Source of the DNA: Escherichia coli
GTDB taxonomy: Bacteria > Pseudomonadota > Gammaproteobacteria > Enterobacterales > Enterobacteriaceae
Strand: one strand, 5' to 3'
Assembly (NCBI RefSeq): GCF_001677475.2
Contig: NZ_CP015229.1
Length of the DNA: 64,000 nucleotides
Shown: one piece after another, positions 20,854-26,559 of the stretch
Layout of the letters: the number at the start of each line of letters is the position of its first letter
How positions within the stretch are numbered: position 1 is the first letter of the stretch
Notes under the pieces: model-generated
Databases searched by the model: none
What the model was told of the DNA's origin: nothing
The model's input: only the letters and a program-made list of their open reading frames with translations
Program-made: the position numbers and the translations under genes

Positions 20854-21723
20854 ATGTCTGCCAAACATCCGGTCATTGCGGTAACAGGATCCAGCGGCGC
20901 GGGGACCACCACCACCAGCCTCGCGTTTCGTAAAATATTCGCGCAGTTAAATCTGCATGCAGCTGAGGTGGAAGGCGACAGTTTTCACCGTTACACCCGC
21001 CCGGAAATGGACATGGCGATCCGCAAAGCGCGCGACGCCGGGCGGCATATCAGCTACTTCGGCCCCGAAGCGAACGACTTCGGCCTGCTGGAACAAACCT
21101 TCATTGAATACGGTCAGAGCGGCAAAGGGAAATCTCGCAAATATCTGCATACCTACGATGAAGCCGTACCGTGGAATCAGGTACCGGGGACATTCACCCC
21201 CTGGCAATCTTTACCGGAACCCACTGATGTACTGTTTTATGAAGGTTTACACGGCGGCGTAGTCACGCCACAGCATAACGTTGCGCAGCATGTGGACTTA
21301 CTGGTCGGCGTGGTGCCTATCGTTAACCTTGAGTGGATTCAAAAACTGATCCGCGACACCAGCGAGCGCGGGCACTCACGAGAAGCAGTGATGGACTCGG
21401 TAGTGCGTTCAATGGAAGACTATATCAACTACATCACGCCGCAGTTTTCCCGCACCCATCTTAACTTCCAGCGCGTTCCCACCGTCGACACCTCAAACCC
21501 GTTCGCGGCAAAAGGTATCCCGTCGCTGGATGAAAGCTTTGTGGTGATCCATTTTCGTAATCTGGAAGGGATCGATTTCCCCTGGCTGCTGGCGATGTTG
21601 CAAGGCTCATTCATTTCCCACATCAATACGTTAGTGGTGCCCGGCGGCAAAATGGGTCTGGCAATGGAATTAATTATGCTGCCGCTGGTGCAACGATTGA
21701 TGGAAGGAAAGAAAATCGAGTAA
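20854..21723 (+). CDS. prkB: Phosphoribulokinase homologue
   Basis: 289-aa ORF with N-terminal P-loop VIAVTGSSGAGTTT characteristic of PRK/uridine kinase family. Confidence 0.9.
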   Translation: MSAKHPVIAVTGSSGAGTTTTSLAFRKIFAQLNLHAAEVEGDSFHRYTRPEMDMAIRKARDAGRHISYFGPEANDFGLLEQTFIEYGQSGKGKSRKYLHTYDEAVPWNQVPGTFTPWQSLPEPTDVLFYEGLHGGVVTPQHNVAQHVDLLVGVVPIVNLEWIQKLIRDTSERGHSREAVMDSVVRSMEDYINYITPQFSRTHLNFQRVPTVDTSNPFAAKGIPSLDESFVVIHFRNLEGIDFPWLLAMLQGSFISHINTLVVPGGKMGLAMELIMLPLVQRLMEGKKIE

Positions 21724-21735
21724 CTCTGCTATTAC

Positions 21736-21757
21736 GCCGGATAAAATACTATCCGGC
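21736..21757. repeat. Perfect 8-bp inverted repeat (gccggata...tatccggc), REP-like hairpin between prkB and yhfA
   Basis: Read directly; sits between convergent gene ends. Confidence 0.5.
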
Positions 21758-21777
21758 TTCACAACGGGATAGTTAAA

Positions 21778-22182
21778 TCACGCGGCAACCACTTCATACG
21801 AGTGAGTAATATTCACCGCTTTTTCCAGCATCAACGCCACTGAACAATATTTCTCAGCAGAGAGATCAACCGCACGCGCAACCGCTGCGTCTTTCAGGTC
21901 GCGACCGGTGACGATAAAATGCAGATTAATGTGCGTAAACAGGCGTGGTGCATCTTCGCGGCGTTCAGAGGTCAATTTTACTTCACAATCGACCACATCC
22001 TGACGCCCTTTTTGCAAGATCGAAACCACATCGATGGCACTGCAACCACCCGCCGCCATCAACACCATTTCCATCGGACTTGGTGCTTTATCGCCTGAGT
22101 TGCCGTCCATTAAAATCTGGTGACCAGAGGCGGATTCGCCCAGAAAAGTTAACCCTTCGACCCACTTCACTCGCGCTTGCAT
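21778..22182 (-). CDS. yhfA: OsmC-family protein YhfA
   Basis: 134-aa ORF; OsmC/Ohr-like size and conserved Cys. Confidence 0.85.
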   Translation of the reverse strand: MQARVKWVEGLTFLGESASGHQILMDGNSGDKAPSPMEMVLMAAGGCSAIDVVSILQKGRQDVVDCEVKLTSERREDAPRLFTHINLHFIVTGRDLKDAAVARAVDLSAEKYCSVALMLEKAVNITHSYEVVAA

Positions 22183-22350
22183 TTTTGCTACTCCACTGCG
22201 TCAATTTTCCTGACAGAGTACGCGTACTAACCAAATCGCGCAACGGAAGGCGACCTGGGTCATGCTGAAGCGAGACACCAGGAGACACAAAGCGAAAGCT
22301 ATGCTAAAACAGTCAGGATGCTACAGTAATACATTGATGTACTGCATGTA

Positions 22351-22366
22351 TGCAAAGGACGTCACA
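22351..22366 (+). promoter_or_regulatory. Candidate CRP half-site-bearing operator in crp leader (TGCAA-N6-TCACA)
   Basis: Sequence tgcaaaggacgtcaca ~125 bp upstream of crp ATG; crp is known to be autoregulated via sites in this region. Confidence 0.45.
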
Positions 22367-22483
22367 TTACCGTGCAGTACAGTTGATAGCCCCTTCCCAG
22401 GTAGCGGGAAGCATATTTCGGCAATCCAGAGACAGCGGCGTTATCTGGCTCTGGAGAAAGCTTATAACAGAGGATAACCGCGC

Positions 22484-23116
22484 ATGGTGCTTGGCAAACC
22501 GCAAACAGACCCGACTCTCGAATGGTTCTTGTCTCATTGCCACATTCATAAGTACCCATCCAAGAGCACGCTTATTCACCAGGGTGAAAAAGCGGAAACG
22601 CTGTACTACATCGTTAAAGGCTCTGTGGCAGTGCTGATCAAAGACGAAGAGGGTAAAGAAATGATCCTCTCCTATCTGAATCAGGGTGATTTTATTGGCG
22701 AACTGGGCCTGTTTGAAGAGGGCCAGGAACGTAGCGCATGGGTACGTGCGAAAACCGCCTGTGAAGTGGCTGAAATTTCGTACAAAAAATTTCGCCAATT
22801 GATTCAGGTAAACCCGGACATTCTGATGCGTCTGTCTGCACAGATGGCGCGTCGTCTGCAAGTCACTTCAGAGAAAGTGGGCAACCTGGCGTTCCTCGAC
22901 GTGACGGGCCGCATTGCACAGACTCTGCTGAACCTGGCAAAACAACCAGATGCTATGACTCACCCGGACGGTATGCAAATCAAAATTACCCGTCAGGAAA
23001 TTGGTCAGATTGTCGGCTGTTCTCGTGAAACCGTGGGACGCATTCTGAAGATGCTGGAAGATCAGAACCTGATCTCTGCACACGGTAAAACCATCGTCGT
23101 TTACGGCACTCGTTAA
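22484..23116 (+). CDS. crp: cAMP receptor protein (catabolite activator protein)
   Basis: 210-aa [51 protein letters not shown]...[30 protein letters not shown]. Confidence 0.98.
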
Positions 23117-23154
23117 TCCCGTCGGAGTGGCGCGTTACCTGGTAGCGCGCCATT

Positions 23155-25257
23155 TTGTTTCCCCCGATGTGGCGCAGACTGATTTATCACCCCGATATCA
23201 ACTATGCACTGCGACAAACGCTGGTGCTATGTTTGCCCGTGGCCGTTGGGTTAATGCTTGGCGAATTGCGATTCGGTCTGCTCTTCTCCCTCGTTCCTGC
23301 CTGTTGCAATATTGCGGGCCTTGATACGCCTCATAAACGTTTTTTCAAACGCTTAATCATTGGTGCGTCGCTGTTTGCCACCTGTAGCTTACTGACACAG
23401 CTGCTACTGGCAAAAGATGTTCCCCTGCCCTTTTTGCTGACCGGATTAACGCTGGTACTTGGCGTCACTGCTGAGCTGGGGCCATTGCACGCAAAATTGC
23501 TTCCCGCATCCCTGCTCGCCGCCATTTTTACCCTCAGTCTGGCGGGATACATGCCGGTCTGGGAACCGTTGCTCATCTATGCGTTGGGCACTCTCTGGTA
23601 CGGATTGTTTAACTGGTTTTGGTTCTGGATCTGGCGCGAACAACCGCTGCGCGAGTCACTTAGCCTGCTGTACCGTGAACTGGCAGATTATTGTGAAGCC
23701 AAATACAGCCTGCTTACCCAGCACACCGACCCTGAAAAAGCGCTGCCGCCACTGCTGGTGCGCCAGCAAAAAGCGGTCGATCTAATTACCCAGTGCTATC
23801 AGCAAATGCATATGCTTTCCGCGCAAAATAATACTGACTACAAGCGGATGCTGCGTATTTTCCAGGAGGCGCTGGATTTACAGGAACATATTTCGGTCAG
23901 TTTGCATCAGCCGGAAGAGGTGCAAAAGCTGGTCGAGCGTAGCCATGCGGAAGAAGTTATCCGCTGGAATGCGCAAACCGTCGCCGCTCGCCTGCGCGTG
24001 CTGGCTGATGACATTCTTTACCATCGCCTGCCAACGCGTTTTACGATGGAAAAGCAAATTGGCGCGCTGGAAAAAATCGCCCGCCAGCATCCGGATAATC
24101 CGGTTGGGCAATTCTGCTACTGGCATTTCAGCCGCATCGCCCGCGTGCTGCGCACCCAAAAACCGCTCTATGCCCGTGACTTACTGGCCGATAAACAGCG
24201 GCGAATGCCATTACTTCCGGCGCTGAAAAGTTATCTGTCACTAAAGTCTCCGGCGCTACGCAATGCCGGACGACTCAGTGTGATGTTAAGCGTTGCCAGC
24301 CTGATGGGCACCGCGCTGCATCTGCCGAAGTCGTACTGGATCCTGATGACGGTATTGCTGGTGACGCAAAATGGCTATGGCGCAACCCGTCTGAGGATTG
24401 TGAATCGCTCCGTGGGAACCGTGGTCGGGTTAATCATTGCGGGCGTTGCCCTGCACTTTAAAATTCCCGAAGGTTACACCCTGACCTTGATGCTGATTAC
24501 CACCCTCGCCAGCTACCTGATATTGCGCAAAAACTACGGCTGGGCGACGGTCGGCTTTACCATTACCGCAGTGTATACCCTGCAACTGTTGTGGCTGAAC
24601 GGTGAGCAGTACATCCTTCCGCGTCTTATCGATACCATTATTGGCTGTTTAATTGCTTTCGGCGGTACCGTCTGGCTGTGGCCACAGTGGCAGAGCGGGT
24701 TATTGCGTAAAAACGCCCATGATGCTTTAGAAGCCTATCAGGAAGCGATTCGCTTGATTCTGAGCGAGGACCCGCAACCAACGCCACTGGCCTGGCAGAG
24801 AATGCGGGTAAATCAGGCGCATAACACTCTGTATAACTCATTGAATCAGGCGATGCAGGAACCGGCATTCAACAGCCATTATCTGGCAGATATGAAACTG
24901 TGGGTAACGCACAGTCAGTTTATTGTTGAACATATTAATGCCATGACCACGCTGGCACGGGAACACCGGGCATTGCCACCTGAACTGGCACAAGAGTATT
25001 TACAGTCTTGTGAAATCGCCATTCAGCGTTGTCAGCAGCGACTGGAGTATGACGAACCGGGGAGTTCTGGCGATGCCAATATCATGGATGCGCCGGAGAT
25101 GCAGCCGCACGAAGGCGCGGCAGGTACGCTGGAGCAGCATTTACAACGGGTTATTGGTCATCTGAACACCATGCACACCATTTCGTCGATGGCATGGCGG
25201 CAGCGACCGCATCACGGGATTTGGCTGAGTCGCAAGTTGCGGGATTCGAAGGCGTAA
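23155..25257 (+). CDS. yhfK: Large inner-membrane protein of unknown function (FUSC-like)
   Basis: 700-aa ORF with two hydrophobic multi-helix blocks separated by soluble domain. Confidence 0.85.
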   Translation: MFPPMWRRLIYHPDINYALRQTLVLCLPVAVGLMLGELRFGLLFSLVPACCNIAGLDTPHKRFFKRLIIGASLFATCSLLTQLLLAKDVPLPFLLTGLTLVLGVTAELGPLHAKLLPASLLAAIFTLSLAGYMPVWEPLLIYALGTLWYGLFNWFWFWIWREQPLRESLSLLYRELADYCEAKYSLLTQHTDPEKALPPLLVRQQKAVDLITQCYQQMHMLSAQNNTDYKRMLRIFQEALDLQEHISVSLHQPEEVQKLVERSHAEEVIRWNAQTVAARLRVLADDILYHRLPTRFTMEKQIGALEKIARQHPDNPVGQFCYWHFSRIARVLRTQKPLYARDLLADKQRRMPLLPALKSYLSLKSPALRNAGRLSVMLSVASLMGTALHLPKSYWILMTVLLVTQNGYGATRLRIVNRSVGTVVGLIIAGVALHFKIPEGYTLTLMLITTLASYLILRKNYGWATVGFTITAVYTLQLLWLNGEQYILPRLIDTIIGCLIAFGGTVWLWPQWQSGLLRKNAHDALEAYQEAIRLILSEDPQPTPLAWQRMRVNQAHNTLYNSLNQAMQEPAFNSHYLADMKLWVTHSQFIVEHINAMTTLAREHRALPPELAQEYLQSCEIAIQRCQQRLEYDEPGSSGDANIMDAPEMQPHEGAAGTLEQHLQRVIGHLNTMHTISSMAWRQRPHHGIWLSRKLRDSKA

Positions 25258-25323
25258 TACAGGCTAAACCATCGGATGAGGTGTTCACGCCGCATCCGAC
25301 ATCTTTTGCCTGATGCGTCTTAT

Positions 25324-26559
<1,236 letters not shown>

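Follow-up and report, generated by a model that had tools for sequence, protein, structure and literature searches.

The yhfK gene lies directly behind crp in the 64,000-nucleotide stretch of Escherichia coli DNA analysed here (contig NZ_CP015229.1, referred to below as the window). We consider it moderately probable that YhfK is a fused-dimer protein of the ALMT/FUSC type that resides in the inner membrane and exports organic anions, and that it is expressed at a low, crp-tied level by transcriptional read-through. yhfK is no mere extension of the crp transcription unit, since a conserved terminator precedes it and it has no ribosome-binding site. yhfK is an annotated gene that was already known, and the crp terminator and the associated Rho effect are already present in published datasets.

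Sequence comparison identifies yhfK as a genuine gene under strong constraint that belongs to the Escherichia core. Of 5426 complete E. coli genomes, 5425 match window bases 22400-25400 with 95-99% identity, and the matched segments carry crp, yhfK and argD. Relative to the K-12 copy, yhfK exhibits 37 synonymous and no non-synonymous codon differences. Base composition at the locus is unremarkable, with no sign of horizontal origin. The crp gene differs from its K-12 counterpart at 4 nucleotides, and the crp-yhfK spacer at none. Even the closest of the 5426 genomes is just 98.8% identical over these 3 kb, and therefore the lineage of this DNA is not closely represented among them.

A conserved intrinsic terminator separates crp from yhfK

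The crp coding sequence (22484..23116, + strand, 210 amino acids, named crp in matching E. coli records) is followed by an intrinsic terminator at 23123..23160 (+ strand), which is recognized from its predicted fold, from covariation and from a published Term-seq 3' end at base 23158. The extended hairpin (23123-23157) includes an 11-bp GC-rich core stem, in which bases 23128-23138 pair with 23142-23152, and a CUG loop (23139-23141). The T-tract TTTTGTTT lies directly 3' of the core stem, at 23153-23160. Folding of the 40-nucleotide terminator segment yields -24 kcal/mol (z = -5.46 relative to dinucleotide shuffles), and a 71-nucleotide context folds into the same hairpin.

Published experiments place an RNA end within this element. 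Term-seq data for E. coli MG1655 (Adams et al., eLife 2021, PMC7815308) show a dominant RNA 3' end at position 3486794 (+ strand). This position was classed as the primary 3' end of crp, with an intrinsic terminator score of 8.1 on a scale where scores of at least 3 denote intrinsic termination (PMC7815308). It corresponds to window base 23158, which is 6 nucleotides past the core stem and within the T-tract. All the hallmarks of a Rho-independent terminator are present, namely a GC-rich stem-loop, a U-tract and a 3' end in the U-tract.

The terminator is also conserved among orthologous loci, for which we took the best 80 from species-representative genomes, all of them Enterobacteriaceae, together with 2 E. 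coli records. crp is immediately upstream of yhfK and on the same strand in 82 of the 82 loci, and the spacer between the genes is 45-62 nucleotides long in 80 of them. All 78 distinct spacers form a hairpin directly 3' of the crp stop codon, and a run of at least four T residues is found in 72 of the 76 short spacers. Because a detector that looks for perfect stems overlooked bulged ones, the hairpins were assessed with RNAfold and by pair counting instead. The sequence of the stem varies between genera. In an alignment of 35 Enterobacteriaceae sequences, 93.1% of the stem cells are paired and 12 of the 15 pairs have changed on both sides, values that are reached in 0 of 500 shuffles; slid controls give 33-56% pairing. 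Orthologs with protein identities of 57% and 40% also reside behind crp and a hairpin with a T-tract. We conclude that crp and yhfK are separated by a strong, conserved and experimentally mapped intrinsic terminator.

A scan for consensus promoters and terminators listed no terminator in the crp-yhfK gap. This result is a false negative that reflects an artefact of the tool, since G-U and A-U pairs extend the stem into the T-tract and leave too few T residues. Both folding and a separate terminator scan recover the missed hairpin. Negative results of the consensus terminator scan should not be taken as absence.

The initial annotation described a 700-amino-acid open reading frame (ORF) on the + strand that begins 39 nucleotides after the crp stop codon, which agrees with the ORF list and with the K-12 coordinates of b3358. 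From the statement that there is no obvious terminator hairpin in the gap, it went on to propose that yhfK may be co-transcribed with crp. That statement does not hold, given the stable, covarying and Term-seq-mapped hairpin described above, and the reasoning built on it is lost; the conclusion may hold in another form, as read-through, in view of published coverage data and a lacZ fusion (see below). The same annotation named a strong terminator mapped between the two genes as the finding that would speak against it, and the 3' end at 23158 is such a finding.

A plain two-gene crp-yhfK operon, in which no terminator intervenes and YhfK is made in proportion to CRP, is scarcely credible. Although the genes share a strand and a short gap, are adjacent in 82 of 82 loci, and RNA coverage continues into yhfK, the gap carries a hairpin of -24 kcal/mol with a T-tract that covaries and supplies the mapped primary 3' end of crp. 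Moreover, Rho terminates transcription inside yhfK, and the gene has no Shine-Dalgarno (SD) sequence. Thus, crp and yhfK are not a crp operon in the sense of genes with no terminator between them.

Two loci depart from the common spacing. In Cedecea sulfonylureivorans and in a Buttiauxella metagenome-assembled genome (loci L073 and L080), an extra insert of ~135-145 nucleotides is found between the terminator and yhfK, which shifts the yhfK ATG away from the terminator. These spacers are highly structured (-65 to -75 kcal/mol for the whole spacer) and contain CTGGGGTGAGGGAG. We presume from its appearance that the insert resembles an intergenic repeat of the ERIC/IRU type. Searches with Rfam reveal nothing above threshold across 21700-25700 of the window.

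The yhfK start codon

The uninterrupted 700-amino-acid ORF (23155..25257, + strand) begins with a TTG codon and coincides exactly with b3358 as recorded for K-12 MG1655 (3486791-3488893). This TTG (23155..23157, + strand), which is the start codon in the K-12 annotation, is probably unused. RNA folding places it within the terminator T-tract, base-paired in the extended stem. An in-frame TTG at this location is found mainly in Escherichia, Salmonella and Citrobacter, and most other genera do not have it; in Klebsiella, Kosakonia, Raoultella and others, no alternative start is available in frame. In addition, the N-terminal sequence MWRRLIYHP is common to all orthologs compared. For these three reasons, the likely start of yhfK is the ATG at 23167, 12 nucleotides downstream of the TTG. 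The resulting coding sequence (23167..25257, + strand) specifies 696 amino acids and a stop codon, in agreement with the RefSeq/PGAP annotation and with the conserved N-terminus. The spacer between the crp stop codon and this start is likely 50 nucleotides. Constructs for deleting or overexpressing yhfK are best designed around the ATG at 23167, and such work should reckon with very low expression from the native locus.

Probable read-through expression and the role of Rho

The distance between the end of the T-tract and the ATG is 6 nucleotides, and therefore there is no room for a sigma-70 promoter downstream of the terminator. It follows that yhfK mRNA must arise by read-through of the terminator. 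Between the two elements is a pyrimidine-rich leader, TTTCCCCCG (23158..23166, + strand), that lacks an SD sequence. Among 76 orthologous leaders, none carries an SD-like tetramer at positions -16 to -4, and the 15 nucleotides upstream of the ATG average 19% purine. The ribosome-binding region of yhfK adjoins the terminator hairpin. Across Enterobacteriaceae, the distance between terminator and ATG is conserved, and so is a leader without an SD sequence. Because the leader has no SD sequence and the ribosome-binding region abuts the hairpin, translation initiation is probably weak, which would expose the read-through RNA to Rho.

Published coverage data are consistent with this arrangement and speak for considerable read-through, with an additional layer of control. 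DirectRNA-seq coverage in 800-nucleotide windows upstream and downstream of 3486794 is 754 and 399, respectively, in untreated cells, and 580 and 725 when Rho is inhibited by bicyclomycin; the resulting Rho score of 2.36 is significant (PMC7815308). A second site, at K-12 position 3487001 (window base 23365, + strand), is a published peak of Rho-dependent termination inside yhfK, ~200 nucleotides into the gene (Adams et al. 2021, supplement 2). Its Rho score is 3.06 (p 4.9e-32), and coverage upstream and downstream of it changes from 675 and 217 in untreated cells to 587 and 578 with bicyclomycin (PMC7815308). The ratio of C to G over the region 23267-23400 is 1.2-1.5. A published lacZ fusion that is driven by a constitutive promoter and includes crp from its transcription start together with all of yhfK shows 1.6-1.8-fold higher expression in a rhoR66S strain. 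A joint crp-yhfK read-through transcript is plausible, its demonstration being confined to this fusion with its artificial constitutive promoter.

We infer that read-through is the source of yhfK mRNA, and both the published coverage and the lacZ fusion agree. yhfK would probably be transcribed by read-through of the crp terminator, and these transcripts then trimmed by Rho. The SD-less leader abutting the hairpin would make translation of the read-through RNA poor, and poorly translated transcripts would be cut back by Rho ~200 nucleotides into yhfK. Under this model, expression would be low and tied to crp, with yhfK mRNA derived only from terminator read-through, and weak translation would be the cause of the Rho sensitivity; in addition, yhfK would depend on the crp promoters. 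The net effect would be a low rate of YhfK synthesis that scales with crp transcription. The arrangement resembles other leaky intrinsic terminators with Rho as a backup between neighbouring bacterial genes, which share the hairpin and U-tract, residual read-through and a Rho-dependent stop in RNA that is translated poorly or not at all. It differs from them in that Rho acts here on the beginning of a conserved protein-coding gene, for which read-through is the sole apparent source of mRNA.

A promoter of its own, situated inside crp or overlapping the terminator, could instead free yhfK from control by the crp promoters and by CRP autoregulation. We regard this possibility as unlikely, although with Rho inhibited the coverage of 580 upstream versus 725 downstream exceeds what one would predict if an efficient terminator were simply read through, and weak or non-sigma-70 promoters evade consensus scans. 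Such a scan finds no promoter-like site on the + strand across 22000-25700, the T-tract region contains no -10 hexamer that could serve transcription beginning close to the ATG, and any transcript that starts upstream of 23123 must still pass the terminator. We also found no published transcription start site or operon entry for yhfK, several such datasets being outside the reach of our search. As a specific candidate, a leaderless or terminator-overlapping promoter was rejected, since the -10 position relative to the ATG reads TTTGTT/TTTCCC and has no A at position 2.

YhfK belongs to the YccS/YhfK family

The protein matches TIGR01667, the NCBIfam model for YccS/YhfK family putative transporters, with 926.5 bits (cutoff 467.8, E 8.7e-279) over positions 1-700 of the 701-position profile. 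Two Pfam domains are recognized, FUSC-like (PF12805; 240.5 bits versus 22.1, amino acids 63-330, E 2.5e-71) and FUSC_2 (PF13515; 78.1 bits versus 25.6, amino acids 377-498, E 8e-22). FUSC proper (PF04632) scores 25.9 bits and is below its gathering threshold of 30.9; the precomputed database annotation of the cluster containing YhfK nevertheless includes PF04632. Because the score for the YccS equivalog model TIGR01666 is far under the cutoff (165.5 versus 470.75 bits), YhfK is classified by profile comparison as a paralog of YccS in a distinct orthologous group. E. coli YccS is similar in its membership of TIGR01667, its two-repeat length class and its FUSC-like and FUSC_2 domains, and both proteins are uncharacterised; together the two give the family its name. 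Unlike YccS, yhfK is linked to crp.

Other proteins of the FUSC Pfam clan with a similar size and a two-repeat layout include AaeB (YhcP), which is a subunit of the E. coli p-hydroxybenzoate efflux system, and FusC of Burkholderia. The aaeB gene resides in the aaeXAB operon together with an adaptor gene, and AaeR is the regulator. In contrast to aaeB, yhfK has no adaptor gene among its neighbours, and its product scores below the PF04632 cutoff. The gene order around yhfK is prkB, yhfA, crp, yhfK, argD, pabA and fic, and in E. coli no adaptor, outer-membrane-factor or AaeX-like gene adjoins it. The 40%-identical ortholog lies between crp and a cluster of HGLS, aldehyde dehydrogenase and AstA genes, and likewise no adaptor gene is beside it.

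These observations bear on whether YhfK could be the inner-membrane subunit of a multi-component efflux pump of the AaeAB or FusABC type for aromatic or other toxic acids, with an adaptor encoded elsewhere. The shared FUSC-family domains fit such a role, as does the likeness to aromatic acid exporters named in the initial annotation, and FUSC proteins are found in tripartite and tetrapartite pumps (PMC7682875). The idea is nonetheless rather improbable, as neither E. coli nor the 40%-identical ortholog has an adaptor, outer-membrane factor or AaeX-like neighbour, PF04632 yields 25.9 bits against a cutoff of 30.9, and every solved homolog that has a membrane domain is a channel that works by itself. 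The lack of a nearby partner gene makes an AaeAB-type pump less likely, and we prefer a YhfK that would need no periplasmic adaptor of the AaeA type and would act by itself, be it as channel or as carrier.

An internal duplication of a membrane unit

A structural model calculated by AlphaFold2 from an alignment of 55 sequences (pLDDT 88.9, pTM 0.88) is all helical and predicts that membrane domains and helical bundles alternate along the chain, in the order membrane domain, bundle, membrane domain, bundle. Membrane domain 1 (23191..23631, + strand, amino acids 9-155) is recognized from the model and from hydropathy; it has six helices and is the diverged repeat, with few conserved polar residues. 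It is followed by cytosolic helical domain 1 (23641..24237, + strand, amino acids 159-357), which carries a near-invariant E240 in the motif DLQEHIS. Membrane domain 2 (24250..24675, + strand, amino acids 362-503), also with six helices, is the canonical FUSC_2/ALMT-like repeat and contains R414 and R486. Cytosolic helical domain 2 (24691..25251, + strand, amino acids 509-695) is recognized from the model, from alignment of profiles of the two halves and from invariant residues among orthologs; the motifs at or in this domain are PQW (506-508), QEP (564-566) and IVEHIN (586-591).

A profile-profile alignment of the N-terminal and C-terminal halves with hhalign gives a probability of 95.5% (E 1.5e-8) over 269 columns, and pairs DLQEHIS (237-243) with IVEHIN (586-591). 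Plain BLASTP of one half against the other did not detect the duplication, which is visible at the profile level alone. Half-size relatives (322-445 amino acids) match the C-terminal half only. YhfK is thus, on the evidence of profiles, an internal duplication in which a six-helix membrane unit with a helical cytosolic domain occurs twice.

The initial annotation had deduced two hydrophobic blocks and a membrane protein resembling FUSC proteins and aromatic acid exporters, with no assigned substrate. Hydropathy and the structural model support the two blocks, and the FUSC-like, FUSC_2 and TIGR01667 matches support the family. Its view that the blocks flank one soluble domain needs amending, given a second soluble domain at amino acids 509-695. 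We give only a very slim chance to the idea that YhfK is not primarily a transporter but a membrane-anchored sensor or regulator that acts through its two PhoU-like cytosolic bundles.

Resemblance to ALMT channels

The only solved structural relatives of YhfK that have a membrane domain are plant ALMT anion channels, namely AtALMT1 (7vq7/7voj), AtALMT9 (8hiw) and GmALMT12/QUAC1 (7w6k). Like these proteins, the predicted unit of YhfK combines six membrane helices with a cytosolic helical domain. In the ALMT homodimer, conserved basic residues line a single central pore (PMC8890709). Whereas an ALMT is a homodimer of one unit, YhfK has two diverged units in a single chain, and would be a single-chain "fused dimer" of the ALMT/FUSC unit in the inner membrane. 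YhfK is also not known to be regulated by aluminium, malate or voltage.

Residues that are conserved among the 55 sequences are concentrated in one of the repeats. R414 (codon 24406-24408), on the third helix of membrane domain 2, and R486 (codon 24622-24624), on the sixth, are invariant in 55 of 55 sequences. A further set of residues is at least 90% conserved (W391, T395, T407, G417, T418, G421, D489, G493, P506 and W508), and these, like the two arginines, all fall within membrane domain 2 or shortly past its end. No charged residue of membrane domain 1 reaches a similar degree of conservation. A HMMER alignment places R410 and R414 on K109 and R113 of GmALMT12, and R486 on R198. These GmALMT12 residues are described as pore-lining and as forming positive rings (PMC8890709), and arginines of the third and sixth helices coordinate malate in ALMTs (bioRxiv 10.64898/2026.03.10.710584). 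By this weak alignment, arginines at the pore positions of the third and sixth helices occur in the C-terminal repeat only. Unlike ALMT homodimers, YhfK would keep them in its second unit alone.

For a bacterial member that acts by itself, the closest functional precedent is Rv2571c ("AKGC") of Mycobacterium tuberculosis, reported to be an ALMT-like homodimeric channel that enables export of alpha-ketoglutarate (bioRxiv 10.64898/2026.03.10.710584). It is also a bacterial FUSC-domain protein, its best structural match is ALMT1, and a conserved sixth-helix arginine is essential. Rv2571c is a single unit of 355 amino acids that is predicted to form a homodimer and does not have the third-helix arginine, whereas YhfK has 696 amino acids, two units and both arginines; the two proteins are set side by side here by description only.

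Proposed function

By analogy with ALMT homodimers, the pore of YhfK is probably formed within one chain, such that its two membrane domains would build one central anion pathway. This pathway would be asymmetric, because only the C-terminal repeat retains both pore-type arginines, R414 and R486. The most likely activity, again by analogy, would be export of organic anions, such as carboxylates, down the inside-negative membrane potential. Resemblance to ALMTs points to di- or tricarboxylates or keto acids as the substrate class, and the fused-dimer architecture and the two arginines offer concrete mutants to test.

Several points weigh against this proposal. The Pfam ALMT model (PF11744) scores 16.8 bits, below its gathering threshold of 20.6, and a phmmer search against PDB sequences gives a marginal match to GmALMT12 (E 0.016), so the correspondence of the arginines rests on a weak alignment together with similarity of a predicted fold. 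Both a pore between membrane domains 1 and 2 and anion export by YhfK are suggested by analogy. AaeB, which shares the clan, is described as an efflux pump with an adaptor and not as a channel. As to expression, ratios of steady-state coverage mix termination with RNA stability, and the consensus scan would not exclude a weak promoter inside crp. Finally, the published phenotypes are slight and heterogeneous, and none names a substrate.

These phenotypes come from broad surveys, and no functional study devoted to YhfK was found in the searchable literature. Many papers that name "YhfK" concern an unrelated epimerase-like protein of Bacillus and Listeria, and searches with "yccS" or "b3358" returned unrelated acronyms only. 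In a published screen, overexpression of yhfK lowers the minimal inhibitory concentration of trimethoprim 2-fold. Salmonella with yhfK insertions lose fitness under moderate iron chelation, according to Tn-seq. YhfK is detectable by proteomics in a uropathogenic strain, and few proteins are down-regulated more strongly when uropathogenic E. coli grows in urine or resides inside cells. In a sort based on cyclic di-GMP, a transposon insertion between argD and yhfK showed depletion or enrichment.

A more ambitious form of the proposal holds that yhfK has no promoter of its own across Enterobacteriaceae, that the terminator, leader and Rho together serve as a dosing device that sets YhfK at a small, fixed fraction of crp transcription, and that YhfK is a single-chain channel of the ALMT type that releases carboxylates of the tricarboxylic acid cycle or alpha-keto acids, as is reported for the mycobacterial homolog Rv2571c. 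Taken as a whole, this combination has a slim chance of being correct. In E. coli, cAMP signalling is reportedly inhibited by alpha-keto acids. If both the dosing device and the keto acid channel were real, they would constitute a feedback link between the CRP system and the metabolites that control it.

Downstream and antisense features

The convergent spacer between yhfK and argD contains a GC-rich, REP-like hairpin at 25272..25299 (+ strand), whose sequence is CGGATGAGGTGTTCACGCCGCATCCG and which is followed by ACATCTTTTG. The surrounding 81 nucleotides (25250-25330) fold at -32.5 kcal/mol (z = -4.66), and the Rfam family naRNA4, which is REP-derived, yields a weak, sub-threshold match at 25270-25330 (24.4 bits versus 59.5). 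The hairpin looks like a REP-type element, and may double as a terminator for yhfK and argD. Further downstream, a region of Rho termination on the + strand, antisense to argD, is reported at K-12 position 3489306 (window ~25670) with a Rho score of 4.33 (Adams et al. supplement). This site suggests that transcription leaving yhfK runs antisense into argD and is stopped there by Rho.

Additional features in the vicinity are on the - strand. The antisense RNA AsCRP (K-12 record 3485953-3486231, window 22317-22595) overlaps the 5' untranslated region and start of crp. The sole promoter-like consensus match in 22000-25700 is inside crp (22717..22689) and does not coincide with AsCRP. The 17-codon gene yrfJ (b4820), at ~26496-26549 of the window, overlaps the 5' end of argD in the K-12 record.

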